A stretch of DNA of 64,000 nucleotides, from NCBI RefSeq assembly GCF_055900595.2, contig NZ_CM148325.1; one strand, written 5' to 3'. The notes under the pieces are model-generated. The model made no database searches. It was not told the origin of the DNA and saw only the letters and a program-made list of their open reading frames with translations. Shown piece after piece: positions 1 through 63,274 of the stretch (its first letter is position 1; every line of letters begins with the position of its first letter). A program made the position numbers and the translations under genes.

Positions 1-1330
<1,330 letters not shown>

Positions 1331-1336
1331 TAATAA

Positions 1337-2635
<1,299 letters not shown>

Positions 2636-2644
2636 GCAATCAAT

Positions 2645-2674
2645 GTCGGATGCGGCGCGAGCGCCTTATCCGAC
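2645..2674. repeat. REP-type palindromic element between lacY and lacA
   Basis: Palindrome gtcggatgcggcgcgagcgccttatccgac, REP-like. Confidence 0.6.
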
Positions 2675-2700
2675 CAACATATCAGGACGGAATGATCAAA

Positions 2701-3312
2701 ATGAACATGTCGATGACAGAAAGAATAAAAGCAGGAAAGCTATTTACCGATATGTGCGAAGGCTTACCTGAAAAAAGACTTCGTGGGAAAACATTAATGT
2801 ATGAGTTTAATCACTCGCATCCAGCGGAAGTTGAAAAAAGAGAAAGCCTGCTTAAAGAAATGTTTGCCACGGTAGGGGAAAACGCCTGGGTTGAACCACC
2901 TGTCTATTTCTCTTACGGCTCCAACATCCATATAGGCCGCAATTTTTATGCAAATTTCAATTTAACCATTGTCGATGATTACACGGTAACGATCGGTGAT
3001 AACGTACTGGTTGCCCCCAACGTTACCATTTCCGTTACGGGACACCCTGTACACCATGAATTAAGAAAAAACGGAGAGATGTACTCTTTTGCGATAACGA
3101 TTGGTAATAACGTCTGGATCGGCAGCCATGTGGTCATTAATCCAGGCGTCACCATCGGGGATAATTCTGTTATTGGCGCGGGAAGTGTCGTCACAAAAGA
3201 CATTCCACCAAACGTCGTAGCTGCTGGCATTCCTTGTCGGGTTATTCGCGAAATAAACGATCGGGATAAGCAATATTATTTCAAAGATTTTAAAGTTGAA
3301 TCGTCAGTTTAA
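2701..3312 (+). CDS. lacA: galactoside O-acetyltransferase, 203 aa
   Basis: ATG at 2701 (MNMSMTERIKAGK...), hexapeptide-repeat acetyltransferase; the ORF-track start at 2650 is an upstream in-frame extension. Confidence 0.93.
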   Translation: MNMSMTERIKAGKLFTDMCEGLPEKRLRGKTLMYEFNHSHPAEVEKRESLLKEMFATVGENAWVEPPVYFSYGSNIHIGRNFYANFNLTIVDDYTVTIGDNVLVAPNVTISVTGHPVHHELRKNGEMYSFAITIGNNVWIGSHVVINPGVTIGDNSVIGAGSVVTKDIPPNVVAAGIPCRVIREINDRDKQYYFKDFKVESSV

Positions 3313-3324
3313 ATAAGCAAAATT

Positions 3325-3395
3325 GCCTGATGCGCTCCGCTTATCAGGCCTATAAGTTCAGTGATCTACGTAGGCCGCATCCGGCGTAAACAAAG
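3325..3395. repeat. REP pair (BIME) between lacA and cynX
   Basis: gcctgatgcgctccgcttatcaggcctat ... gtaggccgcatccggcg, inverted REP copies. Confidence 0.7.
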
Positions 3396-3414
3396 CGCAG
3401 GAACGAGCGTCGCA

Positions 3415-4569
3415 TCATGCCTCTTTGACCCACAGCTGCGGAAAACGTGCTGGTGCAAAACGCAGGGTTATGATCATCAGCCCAACGACGCACAGCGCAT
3501 GAAACGCCCAGTCCATCAGGTAATTGCCACTGATACTACGCAGCACACCAGAAAACCACGGAGCAAGCCCGGCAATGATAAAACCGATCCCCTGCATAAA
3601 CGCCACCAGTTTGCCAGCAATAGCGGGTTGCGCAGAGTGATCGAGCGCCAGCAGCAAACAGAGCGGAAATGCGACACCCAGACCTAACCCACACACCATT
3701 GCCCACAATACCGGCAATTGCAGCGGCAGCCAGATAAAGCCGCAGAAACCCACCAGTTGTAACGCCAGTGCCAGCATTAATAGTTTGCGCCGATCCTGAT
3801 GGCGAGCCATAGCAGGCATCAGCAATGCCCCTGCGGCTTGACCAAGCGTCATCAACGCCAGCAAGGAACCGCTGTACTGCGTGCTGGCACCGATCTCAAT
3901 ATAGAAGGCGGGTAACCAGGCAATCAGACTGGCGTAACCGCCGTTAATCAGACCGAAGTAAACACCCAGCGTCCAGGCGCGGGGAGTGAAGACTACGCGA
4001 ACCGGAGTGGTTGTTGTCTTGTGGGAAGATACGACCTCGCGGGAGCTTTGCCACCACCAGGCAAAGAGCGCAATAATGGCAGGCAGCGCCCACCAGGCGA
4101 GAGTCTGGAACCAAATCTCGCTGTGTTGAACTAACCAGGGCGTCAGGGCGGCACCAAGTCCACCGCCGCCCATCAGAGCCGCAGACCACAGCCCCATCAC
4201 CAGTGGCGTGCGCTGCTGAAACCGCCGTTTAATCACCGAAGGCATCACCGCCTGAATGATGCCGACCCCCACTCCACCGAGCAGTGCGCTGCTAAGCAGC
4301 AGCACACTTTGAGGGTAAAGCTCTCGCATCAATGCGCCGACGGCTATCAACAACAAACTGATGGCGACGCTGCGACGTTCGCTGACATGCTGATGAAGCC
4401 AGCTTCCGACCAGCGCCAGCCCGCCCATGGTGACCACCGGCAGAGCGGTCAACAGGGCAGCCACGCTAAAGCTCATTCCGCTCGCCTGGCGCAATTGCGG
4501 TAGCAGTGGCCCGACGGAGGTGAGCAGTGGTCGCATATTAAGACCAATCAGCACCAGAACCAGCAGCAT
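3415..4569 (-). CDS. cynX: cyanate transporter (MFS), 384 aa
   Basis: Hydrophobic ORF; N-terminus MLLVLVLIGLNMRPLL matches CynX; ATG at 4569 chosen over ORF-track start 4596. Confidence 0.9.
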   Translation of the reverse strand: MLLVLVLIGLNMRPLLTSVGPLLPQLRQASGMSFSVAALLTALPVVTMGGLALVGSWLHQHVSERRSVAISLLLIAVGALMRELYPQSVLLLSSALLGGVGVGIIQAVMPSVIKRRFQQRTPLVMGLWSAALMGGGGLGAALTPWLVQHSEIWFQTLAWWALPAIIALFAWWWQSSREVVSSHKTTTTPVRVVFTPRAWTLGVYFGLINGGYASLIAWLPAFYIEIGASTQYSGSLLALMTLGQAAGALLMPAMARHQDRRKLLMLALALQLVGFCGFIWLPLQLPVLWAMVCGLGLGVAFPLCLLLALDHSAQPAIAGKLVAFMQGIGFIIAGLAPWFSGVLRSISGNYLMDWAFHALCVVGLMIITLRFAPARFPQLWVKEA

Positions 4570-21014: not shown

Positions 21015-21971
21015 TTAAACCACCCGATCCAGTCCCAACATGCCGCGAGCCTGAATGAAACAGAGCAGCAACGTTCCCCATAAGGCCATCGTCAGGTAGG
21101 GGCTTATCCCGAGAATATTGAAGCCGCTTTCAATAATTTGCAGAAGAAACAGCGCCAGCACCATACCAATTATCCGCCCGCTGCCGCCGTCCGGATTAAC
21201 CCCGCCGAGTACTGCCGCGAGGATTGACACCAGCAAGTACGATTCGCCATAAGAGGCCTTAGCCGAGTTGAGTTTCGACATCATCAAAAATGCCGCTACC
21301 GCACAAAGCAAGGCGGAAATGACATACACCCATATCAGCACCCGACGCGTGTTAATACCGGAGTAAAGTGTTGCTCGTTCGTTAGAACCAATCAGATAAA
21401 TGGATTTACCGAGCGGCGTTTTCTCCAGCAATATCCACAGCCCCAGCGCCACTGCGGTAAACAACCACATCGGTAGCGGAATACCGAACCACTGTGCATG
21501 ATTCAACCACAGCACCCATGAGGGATAATTGGCAATGGCGCTACCGCCTGTCACCAGAATATTTACCCCTTTGAGCAACGTCATCATCCCAAGCGTTGCA
21601 AGAATTGGCGACACTCGAATACCGGCAATCAATACGCCATTACATAAACCAATTATCACCGCCGCACCAGCGCCCGCCAGCAGCGTAGCGACAACCGTAG
21701 TAATACCCGGCGGATACTGAGTCGCCACCCACGCCATCACCAGTGAACAGGCGTTAGCGGTAGCAATAATTGACAAGTTAATGCCGCCACAAAGCATGGT
21801 CACCGCCATAGCCAACGCCAGAATGCCCAGCACGGGCATTTGCGAAGCGACAGACTGGAAGTTACTTATCGACCAGAAAATCTCCGGCATAGTAATGCTG
21901 AACGCGGCAACAGTTAGCACCAGCAGGCCGATCAAATAAAACTCAACGTTATTACGCCACGATTTTTTCAT
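21015..21971 (-). CDS. sugar ABC transporter permease (CUT2 family, RbsC/LsrD-like)
   Basis: Polytopic membrane ORF; ATG at 21971 overlaps the stop of the upstream permease (ATGA coupling); ORF-track start 22001 is a GTG extension. Confidence 0.8.
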   Translation of the reverse strand: MKKSWRNNVEFYLIGLLVLTVAAFSITMPEIFWSISNFQSVASQMPVLGILALAMAVTMLCGGINLSIIATANACSLVMAWVATQYPPGITTVVATLLAGAGAAVIIGLCNGVLIAGIRVSPILATLGMMTLLKGVNILVTGGSAIANYPSWVLWLNHAQWFGIPLPMWLFTAVALGLWILLEKTPLGKSIYLIGSNERATLYSGINTRRVLIWVYVISALLCAVAAFLMMSKLNSAKASYGESYLLVSILAAVLGGVNPDGGSGRIIGMVLALFLLQIIESGFNILGISPYLTMALWGTLLLCFIQARGMLGLDRVV

Positions 21972-22939
21972 AGCAGACTCCGGTTCTGATGCTGACTCCA
22001 CGCCGTGGCGCTAATGCTGGCAACGATGATGATGCCTGTGATCAATGTTTGCCAGTAAGACGAGACTCCCAATAAATTTAGCCCGTTTTGCATCACTGCC
22101 AACAACACCACGCCGAGCAAAGTACCGGTTAACGTGCCGCGCCCGCCGAGCAAACTAGTGCCGCCAAGCACCACCGCAGCCAGTACTGTCAGCTCATAAC
22201 CCAGAAGAGAATCGGGGGCGACAGTCATCACCGTCCACGACTGCACTACACCCGCAGCACCAGACATCAATCCCATATAGCCGTAAACGAAAAGTTGCAG
22301 TTTCAGCACGCTAAAGCCGATGCGACTGGCTGATTCACGGTTCCCGCCAAGGGCATAAATTTTGCGCCCTACACTGGTGAAATTCATGATAAACGCTGTC
22401 AGCAGCACCACCGTAATCATGGCGATCAGCGGCAGACCAAGGCCATAGTCATAGCCGTCAGCATCGGTGTACTTGAACAACATTACCCCCTGCTCAAACC
22501 ACGGCGGAAAGTCGTACAGCCACACACCTTTACTCAACCATAACAGCAGGCCATAGAAAATATTCAGCGTCGAAATGGTGATGATGATAGAAGGCACCCG
22601 TAGGCGATTAACCAGTAAGGCGTTTATTAAGCCAAGTAAAATGCCGATGCCGCCCGCCAGGGCAAACGCGACAGCAAAGTTGCCACCCATTTTTTGTAGC
22701 AACAGCACCATGCCGTATTGCGCAATGATGGTCATTGCCGGAAACGAAATATCAATTCCACCGGAAATTAACACCACAAACAAACCACAGGCGAGAATAG
22801 TCAACATGGCATAGTTATTGGCGAGATCGTACAAATTACCGAATGTCAGAAACTCGTCGCTGCGCCAGGCAAGGCCAACAAACAGCACTATAATCAGTAA
22901 TGCCAGCCAGAATTCATGGCGTTTTTTCAGTTCAGCCAT
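21968..22939 (-). CDS. sugar ABC transporter permease (CUT2 family, RbsC/LsrC-like), 323 aa
   Basis: Polytopic membrane ORF; start overlaps the ATPase stop. Confidence 0.85.
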   Translation of the reverse strand: MAELKKRHEFWLALLIIVLFVGLAWRSDEFLTFGNLYDLANNYAMLTILACGLFVVLISGGIDISFPAMTIIAQYGMVLLLQKMGGNFAVAFALAGGIGILLGLINALLVNRLRVPSIIITISTLNIFYGLLLWLSKGVWLYDFPPWFEQGVMLFKYTDADGYDYGLGLPLIAMITVVLLTAFIMNFTSVGRKIYALGGNRESASRIGFSVLKLQLFVYGYMGLMSGAAGVVQSWTVMTVAPDSLLGYELTVLAAVVLGGTSLLGGRGTLTGTLLGVVLLAVMQNGLNLLGVSSYWQTLITGIIIVASISATAWSQHQNRSLL

Positions 22940-24416
22940 TTACCACCTCCGCAATCCTGGCCTGAGAACTGCTGTCAGGCAGGAAGCTATGGGTGATCTG
23001 ACCTTTTTGCATTACCAAAATCCGGTGGCTTTGATACCACGCTTCTTCAATTTCATCGCAGATCATCAATACCGCAATGCCATGAGCCGCCAGATCGCTG
23101 ATAATGCCGTATATTCCTGCTTTGTTGGCGATATCAACACCGACAGTCGGGCTATCGAGAATCAACAGTCGTGGCCCAATCGCCAGCCATTTGGCGATCG
23201 ATACTCGCTGCGCGTTACCCCCGGAAAGCGTATTCACCGGGAGATGTGGGTCAGAGACTTTGATGGTCAATGCCTTAATTAGCCTGTCCACCAGGTCACG
23301 CACTTTAGCTTCACTCAGAAAGCCGAAGCGATCTTTTACCTTGTGAAAAACAGTGCTAATGATGTTGTCTTCAATAGATTGCGCCATCACCAAACCGCGC
23401 GACATGCGATCTTCCGAAACATAACCAATACCGTGGCGGATGGCGTCCTGGTTACTATGCAGTGTAACCGGCTGACCGTTGATGAGGATCTCACCAGCAT
23501 CCGGTCGGGTCATACCAAACAGACTCAGACATAATTCCGTGCGCCCCGCACCAAGCAGGCCAACAATCGACACCACTTCGCCCGCTTCCACCCGCAAGTT
23601 AATATTTTGATATTCCCCATGACGACTTAAATTACGCACCTCCAGCACTGGGGTGCTGGATTTTCCCTGCCACAACTCTCGCACCTGATATTCAAACTCC
23701 TGGCCGGTCATCAGGAAACCGAGTTGTTTTGTGGTCATCTCTGCAGCCGGAAAGGTCCCGACCAGCTCACCATCTTTCAACACTGAAATACGGTCGGAAA
23801 CTTCCATCACCTCTTCCAGACGATGACTGACGAAGACCACGCAGATCCCGCGTTCCCGCAATTGATGCACCACCTGTAATAACCCTTGCACTTCCTGATG
23901 GGTCAGCGAAGCGGTTGGTTCATCCATCACGATCAACCGTGCGTCCTGCGCCAGTGCACGGCAAATTGCCACCAGCTGACAGCGGGCAATTGAAAGCTCA
24001 GAAACGAGCGTATCCAGTGGCAATGTGACGTTAATACTGGTCATTGCCGCCTGCGCCACCTCACGCAGACGACGTCGGTTAACAAACAGTCCGTGGTGAT
24101 AGTGATTCACGGCGATATTCTCCCAGACACTCAGGTTAGGAAATAAAGAGAGGTCCTGATAAATCACCTGAATCCCCTGCGCCACCGAAGCGGCGGGTGT
24201 CAGCTTTGACCAGTTTTTCCCACCAAGCGTAATTTCCGCCCCCTCATCCGGGCGATAAACACCGGACATAATTTTAATCAACGTCGATTTACCACAGCCG
24301 TTTTGCCCGGCAAGGCAGTGCACCTCACCCGACATAAAGTCGAGAGAAACATCGCGCAGCGCTCGCGTGGCATGAAACGTTTTGTTGATATGACGAAGGG
24401 AAAGGAAGGTTTCCAT
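22932..24416 (-). CDS. sugar ABC transporter ATP-binding protein with duplicated ABC domains (RbsA/LsrA-like)
   Basis: Walker A GQNGCGKST, signature LSGGNAQR and a second ABC domain; ATG at 24416 (METFLSLRH...) preferred over the TTG at 24431. Confidence 0.85.
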   Translation of the reverse strand: METFLSLRHINKTFHATRALRDVSLDFMSGEVHCLAGQNGCGKSTLIKIMSGVYRPDEGAEITLGGKNWSKLTPAASVAQGIQVIYQDLSLFPNLSVWENIAVNHYHHGLFVNRRRLREVAQAAMTSINVTLPLDTLVSELSIARCQLVAICRALAQDARLIVMDEPTASLTHQEVQGLLQVVHQLRERGICVVFVSHRLEEVMEVSDRISVLKDGELVGTFPAAEMTTKQLGFLMTGQEFEYQVRELWQGKSSTPVLEVRNLSRHGEYQNINLRVEAGEVVSIVGLLGAGRTELCLSLFGMTRPDAGEILINGQPVTLHSNQDAIRHGIGYVSEDRMSRGLVMAQSIEDNIISTVFHKVKDRFGFLSEAKVRDLVDRLIKALTIKVSDPHLPVNTLSGGNAQRVSIAKWLAIGPRLLILDSPTVGVDIANKAGIYGIISDLAAHGIAVLMICDEIEEAWYQSHRILVMQKGQITHSFLPDSSSQARIAEVVNG

Positions 24417-24464
24417 AGCATCCCCTGGCAATAAGAATCGGGGCTTTCGCCCCGAAGAAATGGA

Positions 24465-25451
24465 TTAATAAAGTGAGTCAATATTGTCTTTGTTGACCAG
24501 TAATACCTTATGGAAACGGATAATTCGCTTATCCATATCTACGTCGGCCTTACCGAGATTCTCCATTTCTAATCCAGGTTTGATCTCTTCACCCTTCAGC
24601 AACGTGCTGGCGACGGCCGCGAGTGCGTAACCTGCAGAGGCCGGATCGTAAGTAATCCCTTCGGTGATATCACCACTTTTAATCAATGATGCCGCCTGTG
24701 AAGGGATCATCATGCCATAGACTGCGACTTTATTTTTCGCCCGTTTCTCTTTCACCGCACGTCCCGCGCCAATCGGACCGTTTGAACCAAAGGAGACAAC
24801 CGCTTTCAAGTCAGGATAGGTTTTCATCAGGTCCAGTGTGGTACGACGTGAGTCATCCACACTCTCGGCAACCGGCATGCGGCGGGTAACTTCATGCATA
24901 TCCGGGTAATGCTCTTTCTGGTATTTCACCAGCAAGTCAGCCCATAAGTTATGCTGCGGCACGGTCAAACTACCCACATAAATCACATAGCCGCCCTTGC
25001 CACCCATGCGTTTCGCCATATGTTCAACATATTCAGCGGCAAATTTTTCGTTATCAATGATTTCGATATCCCAGTTAGCACTTGGCTGACCGGGGGATTC
25101 GTTGGTCAGAACCACAATTCCGGCATCTCGCGCTTTTTTGAATACCGGTTCTAGCACGTTGGCATCGTTTGGCACGATAGTAATTGCGTTAACCTTACGA
25201 GCGATTAAATCCTCAATAATTTTAACCTGTTGCGGAGCATCAGTACTTGAAGGTCCCACCTGTGACGCATTAACCCCAAAGGCTTTACCTGCCTCGACCA
25301 CACCTTCGCCCATGCGATTAAACCACGGCATACCATCGACTTTAGAGATATTCACCACGACTTTTTCCGCTGCCTGGAGCGGCGAGGAAATTAGCGCAGC
25401 GCCTAATAACAGCGAAGACACCATATTGATAACAAAACGTTTATTCATCAT
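24465..25451 (-). CDS. periplasmic sugar-binding protein (RbsB/LsrB-like), 328 aa
   Basis: Signal peptide MMNKRFVINMVSSLLLGAALISSPLQAAE; type I periplasmic-binding-protein fold; C-terminal NKDNID motif resembles LsrB as recalled. Confidence 0.8.
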   Translation of the reverse strand: MMNKRFVINMVSSLLLGAALISSPLQAAEKVVVNISKVDGMPWFNRMGEGVVEAGKAFGVNASQVGPSSTDAPQQVKIIEDLIARKVNAITIVPNDANVLEPVFKKARDAGIVVLTNESPGQPSANWDIEIIDNEKFAAEYVEHMAKRMGGKGGYVIYVGSLTVPQHNLWADLLVKYQKEHYPDMHEVTRRMPVAESVDDSRRTTLDLMKTYPDLKAVVSFGSNGPIGAGRAVKEKRAKNKVAVYGMMIPSQAASLIKSGDITEGITYDPASAGYALAAVASTLLKGEEIKPGLEMENLGKADVDMDKRIIRFHKVLLVNKDNIDSLY

Positions 25452-25701
25452 TTCAGCCTCATTGCAGGGTAGTCAGGAAGTGTTCGCCCAAATTAGCGCG
25501 CTGGAGAGAATAAGAATTTTCGAATATTTTTATGCAGAATAAACAGCCCTATTTCAGGCAGCTATTAAAAATTTGGTTATAAATATGGACAAAACGGGCA
25601 GTAACAATAAGTGTGACAATCATCACGTAAAAAATAGCAAAATAAACAAAATTAGCGATACTTTATGTTTATGAGCTTATTTCGCGTAGAAAAATAGTTA
25701 T

Positions 25702-26112
25702 CTACACAATGTCAATAAGGGCATATTCTTCAAAGATAACGTCCATTTCGGGTGAATAGCATCCTTCTGCCTGGAAAAAACGACGGTGTTCATTACGCCA
25801 ATATTCAAGACTGAGGTCACCTTCACCTTCCTTACGGGCAAGCTCCGCGGTGACATCAGAAAAGCGCAGTAAATGCAGGCCAATAACTCTGATAACACAT
25901 ACAGGCTCACCACGGCTATTTTCTACAATCTTATACTCACCAATCATCGGAAATGCGTTGTCTTCAATACATCCCGCCAGCGAACCACAGGAAGCTGTTT
26001 TAACACCAGTCGCAATCAACGTTGCGAGGTGATCGGCCAACGCTTCTGAATCGCCAAAAGTACAAAAGGAAGCATGGGGATATTTTTGTGAGATTTTTTC
26101 TTTTATGGTCAT
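25702..26112 (-). CDS. ASCH-domain-like small protein
   Basis: ORF 25702..26145; ATG at 26112 (MTIKEKISQ...) or GTG at 26145; assignment by sequence resemblance only. Confidence 0.5.
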   Translation of the reverse strand: MTIKEKISQKYPHASFCTFGDSEALADHLATLIATGVKTASCGSLAGCIEDNAFPMIGEYKIVENSRGEPVCVIRVIGLHLLRFSDVTAELARKEGEGDLSLEYWRNEHRRFFQAEGCYSPEMDVIFEEYALIDIV

Positions 26113-26408
26113 GAGAATATTTTCGCGATTACGGAAAAAAATCACATCTTAATTACTGTTGATAACCATCAGCAAGAGGATCATTGGTTTTTCTATGTTT
26201 AATCTTTTTTATCCGAAGCAGGTCACATTTATGGCTTGATAAATACCTTTGTTAAAACTCACTTTTGTGTATTTCTCTCAAATAATCCCCTGGAAATTAT
26301 GCCGGGAGATTATAAAGTTCAGGATCATTCATTAACAAACCATTCCCGCCCCACTCCCTGGGGCTTAAATCTCTTACTATTCACCGTTGCAGGCGTTTCA
26401 AATTCGTA

Positions 26409-28789: not shown

Positions 28790-29160
28790 CAACGCCAGAC
28801 AGCCTGATGCGCTACGCTTATCAGGCCTACAGATTCTTGTGCCATTCGTAGGCCGGATAAGGCGTCCACGCCGCATCCGGCAATGGTGACAAATGCCTGA
28901 TGCGCTACGCTTATCAGGCCTACAGATTCTCGCGCCACTCGTAGGCCGGATAAGGCGTTCACGCCACAACCGGCAATGGTGACAAATGCCTGATGCGCTA
29001 CGCTTATCAGGCCTACAGATTCTTGCGCCACTCGTAGGCTGGATAAGGCGTTCACGCCGCATCCGGCAATCGTGACAAATGCCTGATGCGCTACGCTTAT
29101 CAGGCCTACAGATTCTTGCGCCACTCGTAGGCCGGATAAGGCGTTCACGCCGCATCCGGC
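28790..29160. repeat. Tandem BIME/REP array, 4 copies of a 93-bp unit
   Basis: gcctgatgcgctacgcttatcaggcctac recurs at 28802, 28895, 28988 and 29081, each followed by an inverted REP gtaggccggataaggcgttcacgccgcatccggc; ORF 28748..29263 across it is a translation artefact. Confidence 0.9.
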
Positions 29161-29183
29161 AGAGACAACGCGCACTTTGCAGG

Positions 29184-37431: not shown

Positions 37432-39465
37432 TCACGCGTCCGGGAACATCACGCTATGGCCCGGCGCTTCACGATGGAGATGGATAAAGTTAAGGTGCCG
37501 CTCGTACTGGTCGAGAATATCGGTGATCACCTGCTCTTTGCTGTAGTCCATCAGGTCGTTACCCTGGCTGCCTTCTAACAGGAAGGTTTCCAGCCGGTAG
37601 TAGGTCGATTTACCGCTACGTGCGCGGTAGGTAAAGCCCGGCACCGAATATTGCTGCGGCCAAATCTGATAGACAAAGTTTTGCTCTTCGCCCATATGCA
37701 CCAGCAAATCCAGATGCCCCAGATGTTCGCCCTCTTCCGGCGGCAGGCTTTTTAGCTCGACGTACGCACCGCGCAACCGCAGTTCCTGCGCCACTTCTTC
37801 CATTGCCGGATAACAGACGGTTTCCATCATCTGTTTGGTGTAACGCGTGCCCGGATAATTCATCAGGCGCGAGAGACGTTTTTTCCAGCTCAGGCGATCC
37901 TGAAGCCCCAGCGGTCGCGGTGCGGTATCACGGTTGGCACTTTCACGGCGGTAATCTTCTACCTTCAGAGATTTATACAATCCCGCCATCACGAAGAAAA
38001 TCACAAAGCTGAACGGCAGCCCCATGATTACCGTGGTGTTTTGCAGCGCGGATATCCCGTTGGTCATTAACATACCGAGCGTCAGCAGACCAATGGCAAC
38101 CGACCAGAAGACACGCAGCCAGCCCGGCGCGTCGCTGTTGATATCTTTAAGCTGCGAGGTGAAATTCCCCAGCACCAGCGCGCCGGAGTCCGCCGAGGTC
38201 ACATAAAACAGCAGGCCAGTAATGGTGGCCACGGAGGCGCTAAAGGTAAATGCCGGATACTGCGCCAGCAGGCTGTAGAAGCCGCGCTCCGGATGGACCA
38301 TCGCTTCCTCGGCAAATGCCGCGCCGCCGTGGATGATTTCATACAGCGCGCTATTGCCGAATACCGAGAGCCATAACAGCGTGAAGGTAAACGGAATAAT
38401 CAACGTCCCCAGTACGAACTGGCGAATGGTGCGCCCACGCGAGATACGCGCCAGGAACAGGCCAACAAACGGCGACCAGGCTACCCACCATGCCCAGAAA
38501 AAGAGCGTCCAGTTATTCATCCACTCAACCGGGCGGTCAAAGGCGAAACTGTTGAGCGTCATGCCCATAAAGCGATTCACATAGTCGCCGACGTTCAGCA
38601 CCAGCGCATTGAGCAGGAACGAGGTGTCGCCCATAAACAGCACGAACAGAATCAGCCCCAGCGCCAGTGCGACGTTGAGTTCAGACAATACGCGAATGCC
38701 TTTGTCGACACCAGATGTCACCGAGATAGTCGCGATGATTACCGACAGCGCGATCAGCACCGCTTTCGCCGCCATTGAATCCGGGATATCAAACAGTACG
38801 CTCAGGCCATAGTTAAGCTGCACCACGCCAATGCCGAGCGTGGTGGCAATCCCGAAGATGGTGCCGATCACCGCTGCAATATCCACCGAGTGACCAATCG
38901 GCCCGTTAATCCGTTTACCGAAAATCGGATACAGCGCCGAGCGGATGGTGAGCGGCAAATTATAACGATAGCTGAAGTATCCGAGCGCCATGCCCATCAG
39001 CGCATACATCGACCAGCCCGTTAAGCCGTAGTGAAACAGCGTCCAGACCATCGCCTGACGCGCGGCCTCAATCGTCTGACCCGCGCCTTCCGGCGGCTGC
39101 ATATACTGCGTTACCGGTTCGGCTACGGAGAAGAACATCAGGTCGATACCGATCCCGGCGGCAAACAGCATCGCCGCCCAGCTCAGCAGGCTGAACTCAG
39201 GCTTAGACTGCTCGGGCCCGAGTTTCACCGAACCAAAGCGCGAACAGGCAATGCAGACCACAAAGACAATATAGAGCGTTGCCGCTAACAGATAGTACCA
39301 ACCAAAAGTTTTAGAAACCCAGTCCAGCGTGCGGCCAATCCACAGAGCCGAGAAGTCGCGAAACAGGATCGTTGTCAGGGAAAACAACAAAATCAGTCCG
39401 GCGGAAGTATAAAACACCACCGGATTGATTTTGTCCTTTTCCCTGCTGTGCGAAAGGTCTGTCAT
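37432..39465 (-). CDS. betT: choline transporter (BCCT family), 677 aa
   Basis: 677-aa polytopic ORF with a long cytoplasmic C-terminus; divergent from betIBA. Confidence 0.93.
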   Translation of the reverse strand: MTDLSHSREKDKINPVVFYTSAGLILLFSLTTILFRDFSALWIGRTLDWVSKTFGWYYLLAATLYIVFVVCIACSRFGSVKLGPEQSKPEFSLLSWAAMLFAAGIGIDLMFFSVAEPVTQYMQPPEGAGQTIEAARQAMVWTLFHYGLTGWSMYALMGMALGYFSYRYNLPLTIRSALYPIFGKRINGPIGHSVDIAAVIGTIFGIATTLGIGVVQLNYGLSVLFDIPDSMAAKAVLIALSVIIATISVTSGVDKGIRVLSELNVALALGLILFVLFMGDTSFLLNALVLNVGDYVNRFMGMTLNSFAFDRPVEWMNNWTLFFWAWWVAWSPFVGLFLARISRGRTIRQFVLGTLIIPFTFTLLWLSVFGNSALYEIIHGGAAFAEEAMVHPERGFYSLLAQYPAFTFSASVATITGLLFYVTSADSGALVLGNFTSQLKDINSDAPGWLRVFWSVAIGLLTLGMLMTNGISALQNTTVIMGLPFSFVIFFVMAGLYKSLKVEDYRRESANRDTAPRPLGLQDRLSWKKRLSRLMNYPGTRYTKQMMETVCYPAMEEVAQELRLRGAYVELKSLPPEEGEHLGHLDLLVHMGEEQNFVYQIWPQQYSVPGFTYRARSGKSTYYRLETFLLEGSQGNDLMDYSKEQVITDILDQYERHLNFIHLHREAPGHSVMFPDA

Positions 39466-39593
39466 CCAGTATCCCCACTGTTATTGTTACCATTTAAAAT
39501 CAAATTAGTAACAATTAAGACACATTTTATATTGAACGTCCAATCAATAACGGCTTTAATAGATTAACAACGCTGATGAATGGAGTGGCAAAA

Positions 39594-40181
39594 ATGCCCA
39601 AATTGGGGATGCAGTCGATCCGGCGCAGACAACTGATCGACGCCACGCTGGAAGCAATAAATGAAGTAGGTATGCACGATGCGACGATCGCGCAGATCGC
39701 CCGCCGGGCGGGCGTTTCCACCGGGATCATTAGCCACTATTTCAAAGATAAAAATGGTCTGCTGGAAGCAACCATGCGTGATATCACCAGCCAGCTGCGT
39801 GACGCGGTCTTGAACCGCTTACACGCGCTACCGGATGGCAGCCCTGAGCAGCGATTACAGGCGATTGTTGACGGAAATTTCGATGAGACTCAGGTCAGTA
39901 ATGCTGCGATGAAAGCCTGGCTGGCGTTTTGGGCCAGCAGTATGCATCAGCCGATGCTTTACCGTTTGCAGCAGGTGAGCAGCCGCCGCTTGTTGTCGAA
40001 TCTGGTGAGCGAATTTCACCGCGAGTTACCGCGCCAACAGGCGCAGGAAGCGGGCTACGGACTTGCCGCGCTGATTGACGGATTATGGCTGCGCGCGGCA
40101 CTGAGCGGCAAACCGCTGGATAAACCTCTCGCACACTCGCTTACCCGTCACTTTATTACTCAGCATTTACCCACCGATTAA
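39594..40181 (+). CDS. betI: TetR-family repressor of the bet regulon, 195 aa
   Basis: TetR HTH ([21 protein letters not shown]); ATG at 39594 ([14 protein letters not shown]) inside ORF 39576..40181. Confidence 0.92.
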
Positions 40182-40194
40182 CCGAGGAGACGTG

Positions 40195-41667
40195 ATGTCC
40201 CGAATGGCAGAACAGCAGCTTTATATACATGGTGGTTATACCTCCGCCACCAGCGGTCGCACCTTCGAGACCATTAACCCGGCCAACGGTAACGTGCTGG
40301 CGACCGTGCAGGCCGCCGGGCGTGAGGATGTCGATCGCGCCGTGAAGAGTGCCCAACAAGGGCAAAAAATCTGGGCGGCGATGACCGCCATGGAACGCTC
40401 GCGCATTCTGCGTCGAGCCGTTGATATTCTGCGCGAATGCAATGACGAACTCGCTAAACTGGAAACCCTCGACACCGGGAAGGCGTATTCAGAAACCTCA
40501 ACCGTCGATATCGTTACCGGCGCGGACGTACTGGAGTACTACGCCGGGCTGATCCCGGCGCTGGAAGGCAGCCAGATCCCGCTACGCGAAACGTCGTTTG
40601 TTTATACCCGCCGTGAACCGCTGGGCGTGGTCGCAGGAATTGGCGCATGGAACTACCCGATTCAGATTGCTTTGTGGAAATCCGCTCCGGCACTGGCCGC
40701 AGGCAACGCGATGATATTCAAACCGAGCGAAGTTACCCCGCTTACCGCGTTAAAGCTGGCTGAAATCTACAGCGAAGCGGGCCTGCCGGACGGCGTATTT
40801 AACGTGCTGCCGGGCGTAGGTGCGGAAACCGGGCAGTATCTGACCGAGCATCCGGGCATTGCCAAAGTGTCATTTACCGGCGGTGTCGCCAGCGGCAAAA
40901 AAGTGATGGCTAACTCGGCGGCTTCCTCCCTGAAAGAAGCGACCATGGAGCTGGGCGGTAAATCACCGCTGATCGTTTTCGACGATGCGGATCTCGATCT
41001 CGCCGCTGATATCGCCATGATGGCGAACTTCTTCAGCTCCGGCCAAGTGTGTACCAACGGCACCCGCGTCTTCGTTCCGGCGAAATGCAAAGCCGCATTT
41101 GAACAAAAGATTCTGGCGCGCGTTGAACGCATTCGCGCGGGCGACGTTTTCGATCCGCAAACCAACTTTGGCCCGCTGGTCAGCTTCCCGCATCGCGATA
41201 ACGTGCTGCGCTATATCGCCAAAGGTAAAGAGGAAGGTGCACGCGTGCTCTGCGGCGGCGATGTGCTGAAGGGTGATGGCTTCGATAACGGCGCATGGGT
41301 TGCTCCGACCGTATTCACCGATTGCCGCGACGAAATGACTATCGTGCGCGAAGAGATCTTCGGCCCAGTGATGTCGCTCCTCACGTATGAGTCTGAAGAC
41401 GAAGTGATTCGCCGCGCCAATGATACCGACTACGGTCTGGCGGCGGGTATCGTCACGGCGGATCTGAACCGCGCGCATCGCGTCATTCATCAGCTGGAAG
41501 CCGGCATTTGCTGGATCAACACCTGGGGAGAATCCCCGGCGGAGATGCCCGTTGGCGGTTACAAACACTCCGGCATTGGCCGCGAGAACGGCGTGATGAC
41601 GCTCCAGAGTTATACCCAAGTGAAGTCCATCCAGGTTGAGATGGCTAAATTCCAGTCCATATTCTAA
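40195..41667 (+). CDS. betB: betaine aldehyde dehydrogenase, 490 aa
   Basis: Aldehyde dehydrogenase family; ATG at 40195 ([15 protein letters not shown]). Confidence 0.94.
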
Positions 41668-41680
41668 CCAGGAGGTTTAT

Positions 41681-43369
41681 TTGCAATTTGACTACATCAT
41701 TATTGGCGCCGGCTCTGCCGGCAACGTCCTCGCGACACGTCTGACTGAAGATCCGAACACTACCGTGCTGCTGCTTGAAGCGGGCGGCCCGGACTATCGC
41801 TTTGACTTCCGTACCCAAATGCCCGCTGCGCTGGCGTTCCCGCTACAGGGTAAACGCTATAACTGGGCGTATGAGACCGAGCCGGAACCGTTTATGAACC
41901 ACCGCCGCATGGAGTGCGGACGCGGTAAGGGGCTTGGTGGATCATCACTGATCAACGGCATGTGTTACATCCGTGGTAACGCGCTGGATCTCGATAACTG
42001 GGCGAAAGAACCCGGTCTGGAGAACTGGAGCTACCTCGACTGCCTGCCCTACTACCGCAAGGCCGAGACGCGCGATGTGGGCGAGAACGACTACCACGGC
42101 GGTGATGGCCCGGTAAGCGTGACCACCTCAAAACCGGGTGTCAATCCGCTGTTTGAAGCAATGATTGAGGCGGGCGTGCAGGCCGGTTATCCGCGCACGG
42201 ACGACCTTAACGGGTATCAGCAGGAAGGTTTCGGCCCGATGGACCGCACCGTCACGCCACAGGGCCGTCGCGCCAGCACCGCGAGGGGTTATCTCGATCA
42301 GGCCAAATCGCGCCCGAACCTGACGATTCGTACTCACGCTATGACCGATCACATCATTTTTGACGGCAAACGCGCGGTGGGCGTCGAGTGGCTGGAAGGC
42401 GACAGCACCATTCCGACCCGCGCGGCGGCGAATAAAGAAGTGCTGTTATGTGCAGGCGCGATTGCCTCACCACAAATCCTGCAACGCTCCGGCGTCGGCA
42501 ACGCTGAACTGCTGGCGGAGTTTGATATTCCGCTGGTGCATGATTTGCCCGGCGTGGGCGAAAATCTTCAGGATCATCTGGAGATGTACCTGCAATACGA
42601 GTGCAAAGAACCGGTTTCCCTCTACCCTGCCCTGCAGTGGTGGAATCAGCCGAAAATCGGTGCGGAGTGGCTGTTTGGCGGCACCGGCGTGGGTGCCAGC
42701 AACCACTTTGAAGCAGGCGGATTTATTCGCAGCCGTGAGGAATTTGCGTGGCCGAATATTCAGTACCATTTCCTGCCAGTGGCGATTAACTATAACGGCT
42801 CGAACGCAGTGAAAGAGCACGGCTTCCAGTGCCATGTCGGATCGATGCGCTCGCCAAGCCGTGGGCATGTGCGGATTAAATCCCGCGACCCGCACCAGCA
42901 TCCGGCGATTCTGTTTAACTACATGTCGCACGAACAGGACTGGCAGGAGTTCCGCGACGCGATTCGCATCACCCGCGAGATCATGCATCAACCGGCGCTG
43001 GATCAATACCGTGGCCGCGAAATCAGCCCCGGCGCGGAATGCCAGACAGATGAGCAGCTCGATGAGTTCGTGCGTAATCACGCCGAAACCGCCTTCCACC
43101 CATGCGGTACGTGCAAAATGGGGTACGACGAGATGTCCGTTGTGGATGGCGAAGGCCGCGTGCACGGGCTGGAAGGATTACGCGTAGTCGATGCGTCAAT
43201 TATGCCGCAGATTATCACCGGCAATCTGAACGCCACGACCATTATGATTGGTGAGAAAATGGCGGATATGATTCGCGGACGAGAAGCGTTGCCGAAGAGT
43301 CTGGCGGCGTATTTTGTGGCGAATGGGATGCCAGTAAGAGCGAAAAAACTGAATCGCGATTTGAACTAA
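41681..43369 (+). CDS. betA: choline dehydrogenase (GMC oxidoreductase), 562 aa as read here
   Basis: GMC family with GAGSAG Rossmann motif at residues 9-14; only start that keeps it is TTG at 41681, 5 nt after AGGAGG. Confidence 0.88.
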
Positions 43370-43565
43370 CGCAGGAACTTATAAGCTTGAGAGTTACCGT
43401 TCTACGATAAGGACCGAATCCTTATATAAAAAACATAGGTAACACTCATGCTTCATATCCAGTATTCATGATGCTGGTTTTTTGCTGATGTTTTTACCAG
43501 AATATTCCTGATACAGACTATTAATTCAAGCTTATCTGCGACAGATTTCATTTTCTGGATATATT

Positions 43566-44076
43566 ATGAGTGACAAATCAAACAGGATATCGATCTGATT
43601 GAAATTTTATTTTATCTGAAGAAAAAGATTCGTGTTATTCTGTTTATTATAGCTGTTTGTATGACAATGGTGCTATTATTTCTGTACATCAATAAAGACA
43701 ATATAAAGCTGAGTTACAGCCTAAAAATAAACCACACAACATCAGGCATACTTGTAAGCTGTGATAGCAATAATAACTTTGCCTGTCAGACCACAATTAC
43801 TGAAGATGTTATTCAGCGAATTACGAGTTTTTTAGACCAGTACTAATGCTAAAAATTGCCTTGTCAAAAAAATGGTAGATGAATACCAACAAAACTCTGG
43901 GCAGTAATAAACAGCATTCTGATAGAGAGTGCCTGTATAAAGCTGAAGTGACAATGACCGGGAAGGGAGCCCGTCTTCAGGAATGGATTCCTGTCTTTTT
44001 CACTGTAAATATCCTGGCATTATTAATGTCAGGATATTTACAGAAGTGCAGCATAACCATGACGGAACGGGGTTAA
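43566..44076 (+). pseudogene. ykgH: Fragmented ORFs at the position expected for ykgH; probable pseudogene
   Basis: ATG at 43566 reaches a stop after 10 codons; further membrane-protein-like fragments 43661..43846 and 43879..44076 in other frames; AT-rich. Confidence 0.3.
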
Positions 44077-59883: not shown

Positions 59884-60810
59884 TTAACTTTCTATTTTTA
59901 CTCTTTTCTCCACCATAAAATCAATAAAAGCACGAACTTTAGAGGGCATTCTCACCCGTGATGAAACATATATATAAAATCCAGAAAATGAAACGGCCCA
60001 ATCCTCAAGAATCGGCTGTAACTTGCCCGCATTGATATGTTCAGCGATTGCAAAATCCAGATGTTGAATGATACCCGTTCCATTCAGCGCCATTCGTATC
60101 ATGCTTTCGTCATCATTAGAAATATACTTACCTGACACCTCTATTTCGAACTCTTCATTACCCCCCACAACATTCGAAAACTCCCATGCTGAGAGTGCAC
60201 CGCTACTTTTATGCCGCAACCGAAGACAATTATGGTTACTCAATTCCTGAGGAGTTTCAGGAATACCGTGTTCTTTTAAATAATCTGGCGATGCCACAGT
60301 AACCAGTTTTATAAGCGGAGAAACAGGAACGGCAGTCATATGCTCATCCAGTCCTTGCTCAAGACGTATGCCCACATCACAGCCGTCCGCAATAATGTTA
60401 GATAAACCGTCATCCATAATGAGTTCTATCTTTGTTTTGGGGTAACGAGTAAGAAACTCGCCAATATGAGGCTCAATAAGCATCCTTGCTGCAACACGGG
60501 AGGAATTTATTCTCAACAGTCCTGTAGGTTCAAGTTGGGTATCACCGACATCTTTCAACGCATCATCAATTTGCCCCAAAGCCGACACCAGCACTTCATA
60601 CAGATGCTGTCCTTCCTCAGTAAGCGACATATTGCGGGTCGTACGGTATATCAGCTTGGTGTTAAGACGTTCCTCAAGAGATTTTAAATTCTGGGACAAT
60701 GCGGCCCGCGTAATACCCATTTCAGAGGCTGCCCTGGAAAAACTGCCGGCACGAACAATCAGCGCAAACCAGGCAAGAGAAGGCAAAATTGAAGGCTCTA
60801 TTTTCATCAT
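59884..60810 (-). CDS. LysR-family transcriptional regulator, about 308 aa
   Basis: LysR HTH; ATG pair at 60810/60807 (MMKIEPSILPSLAWFALIV...); divergent from the hydrolase gene. Confidence 0.8.
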   Translation of the reverse strand: MMKIEPSILPSLAWFALIVRAGSFSRAASEMGITRAALSQNLKSLEERLNTKLIYRTTRNMSLTEEGQHLYEVLVSALGQIDDALKDVGDTQLEPTGLLRINSSRVAARMLIEPHIGEFLTRYPKTKIELIMDDGLSNIIADGCDVGIRLEQGLDEHMTAVPVSPLIKLVTVASPDYLKEHGIPETPQELSNHNCLRLRHKSSGALSAWEFSNVVGGNEEFEIEVSGKYISNDDESMIRMALNGTGIIQHLDFAIAEHINAGKLQPILEDWAVSFSGFYIYVSSRVRMPSKVRAFIDFMVEKRVKIES

Positions 60811-60966
60811 TGTAAACCTTAACTTAACACTGTGATAGATATTAGACCATTGATGATAACCAATACAAGTCATACTATTACGCCGTTCGCGATATGAACA
60901 CGAATGCCAGTTGCGGATAATAGAAATGATATTTAAATCTGTTTAGGCAAATCCCTGGAGCTTGAA

Positions 60967-61887
60967 ATGAAAACGGTTTCGATAAAACACACTTACTGGG
61001 ATATAGCTGCTGATATCTATTTCCCTGACGATTTTAATAGTGAAAAAAAGTATCCTGCCATTATCAGTGCCCATCCAATTGGAAGCTGCAAAGAACAGAC
61101 ATCGGGTAGTGTGTATGGTGCCGCCCTGGCAAAAGCTGGCTTTATCGTCATTGCTTTTGATGCCAGTTTTCAGGGAAGCAGCGGTGGAGAACCGCGTTAT
61201 CTGGAAGATCCAACAATGCGAGTAAAAGACTTCAGCATTGTCGTTGATTACCTTACCACCTTACCTTACGTTGATGCCGGGCGTATTGGTGTACTGGGTA
61301 TTTGTGGTGGAGGTGGATATGCCATTAATGCCGCAATGACAGAACGTCGGATTAAAGCCATTGGTACTGTCACGGGTGCAAACTACGGGCGTCTTATGCG
61401 TGAGGGATTTACAGCGTTTAATCCTATCGGAGCACTCGAAGCAATGGCGCAACAAAGAACAGACGAAGCTAACGGCGCAAAACTTCGCGTAGATGATTTG
61501 CTCCCTTCTTCTCCGGAAGCAGCTCTTGAAGCGGGATTAACAGAAATAGACCTTTTTGAAGCAACAGAATATTATCGTTCACCACGAGGCTGTGCGCCTA
61601 ATGGGGTAAATCGTTCGCTATTTTCACATCAGACTGTTGCCGTGGGCTGGGATGCTTTTCATCTTGCAGAAGTCCTGTTAACTCAACCACTAATGGTTGT
61701 AGTGGGCGATAGAGTGGGCGCTTTTGGTGCCTATCGTGACGGCTGCGAAATTATTGGTCGTGCAGCCTCAAAACATAAAGAGTTGGTCGTGGTTGAAGGT
61801 TATTCACATTACGACCTGTATGATAAGCCAGAACCTGTGAAACAGGCGCTCGATAAATTAATTCCTTTTTATAAAACACATTTGTAA
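60967..61887 (+). CDS. alpha/beta hydrolase (dienelactone hydrolase-like), 306 aa
   Basis: GxCxG nucleophile elbow (GICGGG) and alpha/beta hydrolase pattern. Confidence 0.75.
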   Translation: MKTVSIKHTYWDIAADIYFPDDFNSEKKYPAIISAHPIGSCKEQTSGSVYGAALAKAGFIVIAFDASFQGSSGGEPRYLEDPTMRVKDFSIVVDYLTTLPYVDAGRIGVLGICGGGGYAINAAMTERRIKAIGTVTGANYGRLMREGFTAFNPIGALEAMAQQRTDEANGAKLRVDDLLPSSPEAALEAGLTEIDLFEATEYYRSPRGCAPNGVNRSLFSHQTVAVGWDAFHLAEVLLTQPLMVVVGDRVGAFGAYRDGCEIIGRAASKHKELVVVEGYSHYDLYDKPEPVKQALDKLIPFYKTHL

Positions 61888-62131
61888 TAATCTTACAGGG
61901 AGATTCCTTATCTCCCTGACATTTATCCTTTATTGACTACACAACAATAATGAAATTACTCAAAAAGAAATTTCATTAAAGAAACAAAAAAGCAGTAACT
62001 CAATCATTAAGATTATTAGAAACCCTTTGAAGGGATTATAAATAAAGCCAGAAATCTTGGTTCCAAAGCTGGCAACAACTAACCAGTTAAAACATACGCA
62101 TCAAAATCAGATAAACATTTGAGGTATTGTT

Positions 62132-63274
62132 ATGACAAATAAACACCCATCATTGTTTTCTCCTTTTATGCTGACAGAAAAAATAAAGCTACGTAATCGT
62201 ATCGTTATGGCTCCTATGACAACCTGGTCAGCTAATCCTGATGGAACCATCTCTGAGCAAGAACTCGAATTTTATAAACGTCGCTCACAAAATGTTGGTT
62301 TAGTAATAACAGGATGCACCTATGTCACGCCAAGCGGCATTGGGTTTACTCATGAATTTGCCGCGTATGACGACCGTTTCATTAACAGCCTTGAAAAGTT
62401 AGCTGCTGCAGCCAAAAGTGGCGGTGCTCCGGCTATTTTGCAGATTTTCCACGCCGGTAATAAAGCCATCCCGGAGCTTGTGCCAAATTACGATGTTATT
62501 AGTGCCAGCGCATCAAGCGTAAAATCTGGTGACTTTATGAAGAGAGTGGTACAAAGCAGGGAAATGACTGAAAACGAAATTCAGGAAACCATTAGAGCAT
62601 TCGGAGATGTCACAAAAAGGGCGATTAAAGCAGGTTTTGATGGCGTTGAACTTCATGGTGCGCACGGATTCCTTCTGCAGAATTTCTTCTCCCCTCTATT
62701 TAACCAGCGTAATGACCGATGGGGAGGAGATCTTGAAGGACGTATGCGCTTCCCGCTGGCCGTATTACAGGAAGTAAAAAATGTAGTCTATGAATATGCG
62801 ACAAAGCCCTTTGCCATCGGTTACAGAATATCTCCTGAAGAATCTGTAACAGGGGGTCTGCGGATAGAGGATACTTATAAACTCCTTGATCGGCTCATTT
62901 CATCCGGTATTTCGTATATACATACCTCGCTGGTCAGTATTAACGATAGCTACCCTGTTGAGTCGCCAAATGGCCCCCGAACTATTGAATTGATTTTAGA
63001 TCATATTGCAGGCAGAGTGCCGGTAATCGCCGCAGGTAAAATACGCACACCGTCTCAGGCTCAAGAAGCAATTTCCGCTGGCCTGCCACTTGTTGCAATC
63101 GGTAAAGGGCTGGTAATAAATCCAGAATGGGTGACTTTAGCTGAATCAGGTAGAAGTCATGAAATTCAAACAGCCCTTAATCCACAACGCGTTCCTGAAT
63201 TAACCATTCCGGATAAACTATGGGATCAAATTCAGGCATCGAAAGGAACTGGCTGGTTTCCGTTAATGGATTAA
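62132..63274 (+). CDS. Old Yellow Enzyme family NAD(P)H:flavin oxidoreductase, 380 aa
   Basis: OYE-type TIM barrel (MAPMTTWSA, HGAHGFLLQNFFSP motifs). Confidence 0.8.
   Translation: MTNKHPSLFSPFMLTEKIKLRNRIVMAPMTTWSANPDGTISEQELEFYKRRSQNVGLVITGCTYVTPSGIGFTHEFAAYDDRFINSLEKLAAAAKSGGAPAILQIFHAGNKAIPELVPNYDVISASASSVKSGDFMKRVVQSREMTENEIQETIRAFGDVTKRAIKAGFDGVELHGAHGFLLQNFFSPLFNQRNDRWGGDLEGRMRFPLAVLQEVKNVVYEYATKPFAIGYRISPEESVTGGLRIEDTYKLLDRLISSGISYIHTSLVSINDSYPVESPNGPRTIELILDHIAGRVPVIAAGKIRTPSQAQEAISAGLPLVAIGKGLVINPEWVTLAESGRSHEIQTALNPQRVPELTIPDKLWDQIQASKGTGWFPLMD

Follow-up and report, generated by a model that had tools for sequence, protein, structure and literature searches.

UUG is one of the three canonical start codons and is used by approximately 3% of Escherichia coli genes (bioRxiv 10.1101/063800). 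In reporter assays, initiation at UUG ranges from 10 to 100% of the AUG level (bioRxiv 10.1101/063800), and an 8- to 12-fold reduction is cited elsewhere (PMC11445065). The closest described counterpart of the locus analysed here is betA of E. coli K-12 MG1655 (b0311, NP_414845.1, 325577–327247), which is annotated from TTG. So is betA in the window, by which we mean the whole 64,000-nt stretch of DNA under analysis (RefSeq assembly GCF_055900595.2, contig NZ_CM148325.1). The two loci have in common the TTG codon, the Shine–Dalgarno (SD) sequence AGGAGGT and the 13-nt gap after betB, and their genes stand in the same order, betT / betI-betB-betA. With high confidence, we take TTG 41681 to be the genuine, long-annotated initiation codon of betA, served by a strong SD sequence, and the C-terminal tail of the window protein to be an unrelated polymorphism.

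Identity of betA and its start

The features of the locus are collected in Table 1. As annotation reference we used the RefSeq record NZ_CP098223.1 (E. coli Z0117EC0005), which is 100% identical to the window. Open reading frames and the PGAP annotation of this record both give the order betI-betB-betA, divergent from betT. BetB matches the NCBIfam equivalog PRK13252 with 911 bits (cutoff 593). The protein started at 41681 scores 1028 bits over its whole length against the NCBIfam equivalog TIGR01810 (cutoff 732.1), with residues 4–537 aligned to model positions 1–532 of 532, that is, with full coverage. PRK02106 adds 998.6 bits (cutoff 605) in an alignment that starts from residue 1, and the Pfam domains GMC_oxred_N (PF00732) and GMC_oxred_C (PF05199) occupy residues 3–300 and 393–524, respectively. 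Judged by these family matches, the predicted protein is choline dehydrogenase BetA, and its 96.6% amino-acid identity to the characterised K-12 enzyme indicates that it would convert choline to betaine aldehyde. As the alignments to the family models reach back to the very first residues, betA could start further downstream only at the cost of the FAD-binding fold, and there is no need for a start further upstream.

Table 1 Features of the betB–betA region of the window
Feature	Position	Strand	Description
betB (betaine-aldehyde dehydrogenase)	40195–41667	+	490 aa, ATG start; PGAP on the identical record
Alternative in-frame TTG inside betB	41636–41638	+	rejected as betA start
betB stop codon TAA	41665–41667	+	read from the sequence
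betB–betA intergenic spacer	41668–41680	+	13 nt, CCAGGAGGTTTAT; from the sequence, identical in K-12
Shine–Dalgarno AGGAGGT	41670–41676	+	7-nt complement to the 16S rRNA 3′ end
betA TTG initiation codon	41681–41683	+	annotated start in NZ_CP098223.1 and K-12 b0311
betA (choline dehydrogenase)	41681–43369	+	562 aa, stop codon TAA 43367–43369
GAGSAG, FAD-binding GxGxxG motif	41705–41722	+	BetA residues 9–14, inside the GMC_oxred_N match
A6 run with extra C	43343–43349	+	1-nt length polymorphism; BetA of 562 or 556 aa

A previous reading of the window, made from the sequence only, had started betA at TTG 41681, 5 nt after AGGAGG and 13 nt after the betB stop. The PGAP start in NZ_CP098223.1 is this same TTG, as is that of K-12 b0311, and both distances are borne out by the sequence: TTTAT (41676–41680) forms a 5-nt spacer between the end of AGGAGG (41670–41675) and TTG, or 4 nt when the count begins at the end of AGGAGGT. 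The junction between betI and betB follows the same design, its spacer also being 13 nt long, and both spacers begin with CC, followed by the SD sequence. The sequence-only reading had further called 41681 the only start that retains the GAGSAG motif, which holds in part. Two in-frame start-type codons, TTG 41636 and TTG 41681, follow the in-frame TGA at 41621–41623, and the first also keeps the motif; 41681 is the sole start with a ribosome-binding site.

Conservation of the junction in E. coli

When the window is aligned with K-12, the betB–betA junction of K-12 (...ATATTCTAACCAGGAGGTTTATTTGCAATTTGAC...) proves equal to it base for base, TTG included. The bet operons of the two differ by 8.2% in nucleotide sequence, and a run of 87 nt across the junction (41620–41706) is 100% identical. 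This run and one of 155 nt (40168–40322) are the longest or near-longest stretches of perfect identity to K-12 in the operon, and they sit exactly on the betB–betA and betI–betB junctions, respectively. Such a placement, set against the overall divergence, suggests nucleotide-level constraint on the bet initiation regions, silent sites included.

The survey of E. coli covered 5,426 complete genomes, with the 67-nt junction 41640–41706 as the query. Of the 5,183 records in which the junction occurs, 5,146 match the query at every position, and K-12, O157:H7 and ATCC 25922 all have the junction of the window. Queries in which ATG or GTG replaces TTG return zero perfect matches in these genomes. 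Among the 37 records with a variant junction, the one that was inspected differs at two other positions and keeps the TTG. From these counts, the TTG start of betA is essentially fixed in E. coli. The sequence-only reading had implied that a TTG start was unusual for betA and had raised a sequencing error at 41681; neither idea survives, as K-12 has the same TTG, nearly all junction records are identical and an ATG or GTG form has no perfect match.

C-terminal length polymorphism

BetA of the window is longer at its C terminus than the K-12 protein, as had been noticed from the sequence, with 562 against 556 aa. Alignment with K-12 demonstrates the cause. betA contains a single indel: in the window, the A6 run 43343–43348 is followed directly by an additional C at 43349, which shifts the K-12 TGA out of frame and adds the residues LNRDLN. 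The K-12 gene ends in GCG AAA AAA TGA, and that of the window in GCG AAA AAA CTG AAT CGC GAT TTG AAC TAA. O157:H7 BetA (WP_001159114.1) is likewise 562 aa long and has the same TTG and junction as the window, but its extra base is an A (A7), its tail reads MSRDLN rather than LNRDLN and its stop codon is TGA rather than TAA.

Other strains are divided between these forms. ATCC 25922 and isolate 538 carry the K-12 form (A6 followed by TGA), and strain 2013C-4282 carries the A6C form of the window. Perfect matches among the E. coli records number 3,309 for the 556-aa K-12 allele and 307 for the O157-type 562-aa allele, the latter counted with an 80-nt query. In other genera, the C-terminal tail of BetA is not conserved. 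The difference at the C terminus is a benign natural length polymorphism, unrelated to the TTG start. The extension frame is still open in K-12, where one extra A would give a protein ending in AKKMSRDVN before a stop codon; on this ground, the short form of BetA seems to have arisen by the recent loss of 1 nt, or else slippage may be common at this site.

Strength and use of the initiation region

With a duplex energy of −11.0 kcal/mol, the SD sequence of betA is the second strongest among the 45 annotated K-12 genes of the surrounding 49 kb, and betA is the sole gene of these 45 to start with TTG. RNA structure at the betB–betA junction is not significant (100-nt fold of −28.1 kcal/mol, z = −1.68, with 16 of 200 shuffles as stable), and the fold at the betI–betB junction is likewise unstructured.

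Direct evidence for use of the codon comes from INRI-seq, a cell-free form of retapamulin ribosome profiling performed on a synthetic pool that represents every E. coli initiation region (PMC9825163). The K-12 betA TTG (position 327247) yields a peak in five of five replicates, with 104.8, 89.4, 84.6, 69.7 and 91.3 CPM (PMC9825163, Tables S2–S4). The betB ATG peak amounts to 29.3–52.0 CPM, with transcript abundances in the pool of 55.6 CPM for betA versus 97.3 CPM for betB, and no alternative start site is called for betA (PMC9825163). The K-12 and window initiation regions of betA are identical from −30 to +26. These peaks demonstrate that the identical K-12 TTG is used in vitro and that, taken as a whole, this initiation region is not a weak one. 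At the start of betB, tandem start-type codons GTG ATG are found (40192–40206), with a further ATG at codon 4 (MSRM), and Table S3 of the same study lists a minor alternative K-12 betB start at +9, at this codon-4 ATG (PMC9825163).

In vivo Ribo-RET gives zero signal across the whole bet operon because the operon was uninduced, and the one N-terminomics supplement searched (TRAINSPOTTER) has no BetA entry. The deep proteome of MG1655 lists BetA at 90.7 (2 peptides) and BetB at 143.1 (7 peptides), a BetB:BetA ratio of approximately 1.6 (PMC6544118, supplementary file 6); mild down-tuning of BetA could account for this value, as could simply a quantification bias for a membrane-associated protein. 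Use of the TTG in vivo rests on annotation, conservation and the in vitro data.

A gap of 13 nt leaves the SD sequence and the start codon roughly inside the footprint of a ribosome that terminates on betB. Because the gap falls within this span, translational coupling or re-initiation from betB to betA is likely; INRI-seq shows that the betA initiation region is also able to initiate on its own. We infer a mechanism in which the near-perfect SD sequence AGGAGGU would efficiently place either a free 30S subunit or a ribosome that is completing betB on the TTG, and the initiator tRNA would decode the codon as fMet. The strong SD sequence, together with its tight spacing, would offset the weaker codon.

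Distribution beyond E. coli and test of selection

The distribution in other species was taken from a scan in which each GTDB species was represented by one genome; the start contexts of the best 80 betA loci were extracted and a BetA tree was built. These 80 loci come from outside Escherichia, which the separate E. coli genome collection covered. In the tree, one BetA clade of 39 sequences has TTG in 35 and ATG in 4. TTG lineages are Escherichia, Pseudocitrobacter, Enterobacter, Huaxiibacter, Lelliottia, Leclercia, Klebsiella (oxytoca group), Raoultella and Citrobacter (amalonaticus and sedlakii). Inside the TTG clade, ATG occurs in Trabulsiella, Pluralibacter and one MAG; it is also the start codon in the outgroups Cedecea, Pantoea, Kosakonia, Tatumella, Rosenbergiella, Pseudomonas and Moraxella. 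Most simply, ATG would have given way to TTG once, in the ancestor of this enterobacterial BetA clade, and TTG would then have been mostly kept, with a few reversions.

The rate of change of the start codon was compared by parsimony with that of 190 four-fold sites in the clade of 39 sequences that descend from the last common ancestor of the TTG taxa. The first base of the betA start undergoes three changes, all from T to A; the four-fold sites average 8.0. As 16.8% of the 190 sites change as rarely, the start T does not differ significantly from the neutral expectation. It is slower than average, as expected for a position at which only two of the three alternative bases give a usable start. 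A first conservation test took only the 35 TTG sequences and counted 4% of their four-fold sites as unchanged; it was circular, the group having been chosen by its TTG, and was rejected.

The surroundings of the codon were compared across the same orthologues. The GGAGGT core (−11.0 kcal/mol) is invariant in 35 of the 35 orthologues that start with TTG. The gap between stop and start is 13 nt in 27 of them and 14 nt in 7, and in the remaining one, whose sequence breaks off on the upstream side, the gap has no measurable length. ATG-start orthologues have SD energies from −5.2 to −12.1 kcal/mol and gaps of 12–29 nt, with one of 127 nt. SD strength differs between TTG- and ATG-start genes with p = 0.002 (Mann–Whitney), a comparison that is not phylogenetically independent, the TTG group being essentially one clade.

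Surroundings and lineage

The window is 93–97% identical to K-12 wherever the two align, and a 2.1-kb betA query finds only 8 of 5,189 E. coli records at ≥99% identity; the DNA accordingly comes from a divergent lineage of Escherichia that is filed under E. coli. We considered a local foreign import of the bet operon into an ordinary E. coli and rejected it, as the whole window shows 93–97% identity to K-12. The bet operon is also found in other settings. E. coli matches that lie on plasmids rather than chromosomes number 10 for the 67-nt junction query and 11 for the 2.1-kb betA query, so the operon is occasionally plasmid-borne. The betI-betB-betA block of Pseudocitrobacter vendiensis (locus L003, positions 1–4155) has 96.8% nucleotide identity to window positions 39181–43335 and 92.2% to K-12, with a divergence at four-fold sites of 0.069 and 0.259, respectively. 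The similarity between P. vendiensis and the window ends near the 3′ end of betA, and the bet block of P. faecalis is 88% identical. On sequence similarity, the bet operon seems to have been exchanged horizontally, and recently, between the Escherichia lineage of the window and P. vendiensis.

Several other parts of the window were noted in the comparison with K-12. Downstream of betA, ykgH (43565–43855) is shortened, with approximately 350 bp of the K-12 gene missing; the K-12 protein has 222 aa, and PGAP marks the remnant in the identical record as an incomplete pseudogene. A segment of approximately 5 kb on the minus strand (21015–26145) has no K-12 counterpart at the same position. It encodes a sugar-type ABC transporter, composed of two BPD_transp_2 permeases, a 499-aa double ABC ATPase and a Peripla_BP_4 binding protein, as well as an ASCH-domain protein. 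At 28802–29161, a tandem array holds 3.9 copies of a 93-nt unit built from REP-like palindromes (BIME-type), corresponding to the 'yahH' region of K-12 between yahG and yahI. Positions 51756–55450 and 56877–63182 have no match in the K-12 region compared.

Alternative explanations of the start

The rival that survives best accepts the TTG and gives it a purpose: selection would keep this codon specifically to lower BetA synthesis relative to BetB and thereby set the enzyme ratio. We consider this unlikely, and equally so the purposes it might serve, such as preventing a build-up of toxic betaine aldehyde by keeping BetA no higher than BetB, or limiting a membrane-associated flavoprotein. The essential fixation of TTG in E. 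coli and its retention across several genera speak for such selection, but the start base changes about as rarely as a sizeable share of silent sites, and Trabulsiella, Pluralibacter and one MAG manage with ATG in its place. TTG always comes with the invariant strong SD sequence and a gap of 13–14 nt (34 of 35 loci measurable), whereas ATG orthologues are variable; this association of SD strength with start codon is confounded by phylogeny. The excess of BetB over BetA in MG1655 in vivo (PMC6544118) points in the direction of tuning, but it is calculated from 2 peptides of a membrane-associated BetA, and in vitro the betA region out-initiates the betB ATG region. The lacI GTG codon offers a precedent for an adaptive non-ATG start (PMC11445065). 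Overall, the evidence leans against a strong tuning effect of the TTG. We know of no autoregulatory logic for betA. More doubtful still is an elaborated version in which TTG, the invariant GGAGGU SD sequence and the 13–14 nt gap would form a co-adapted module that caps BetA at or just below BetB; if so, toxic betaine aldehyde would never accumulate, and the few ATG lineages would have compensated elsewhere.

A second rival holds that the upstream TTG 41636 is the real start, which would give BetA a 15-residue N-terminal extension overlapping the end of betB. This codon is in frame, comes after the stop at 41621–41623 and retains the FAD motif, but it has no SD sequence upstream. It lies at −45, and the INRI-seq oligos carry 30 nt of upstream sequence, starting at −30, so that this in vitro method is blind to it; the method detects a strong peak at the annotated TTG. 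Among relatives, the same position is an in-frame stop in Klebsiella/Raoultella and holds no start codon in three Citrobacter species, and the BetA family models start at residues 1–4 of the 41681 protein, with no need for an extension. We regard a start at 41636 as very improbable.

An origin of the TTG in a sequencing or assembly error, or in a mutation of ATG confined to this strain, has a negligible probability: although TTG is a minority start codon both genome-wide and locally (1 of 45 genes), the E. coli population data given above, from the identical junctions of K-12, O157:H7, ATCC 25922 and the wider collection to the lack of any perfect ATG or GTG match, refute it, and the same TTG recurs in the genomes of at least 33 other species among the best 80 betA loci.

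Comparison with known non-ATG starts

Taking TTG 41681 as the genuine start of betA has its value in correct annotation: the start is placed correctly in a divergent Escherichia lineage, a sequencing error is ruled out, and the difference between 556 and 562 aa is explained as a harmless indel polymorphism. If tuning were true, betA would be one more case in which the choice of start codon sets the ratio of operon enzymes, a principle already established for other genes. Like the betA TTG, the GTG of lacI (PMC11445065) and the AUU of infC are near-cognate starts conserved across Enterobacteriaceae, and such starts could in principle set expression. Compared with an adaptive start of the lacI GTG type, betA lacks one testable defining feature, conservation above the neutral expectation, and it differs from both the lacI and infC types in that its initiation region is strong overall. 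The TTG start of betA is already known, with the same start codon, SD sequence, spacing and operon design as in the reference annotation.
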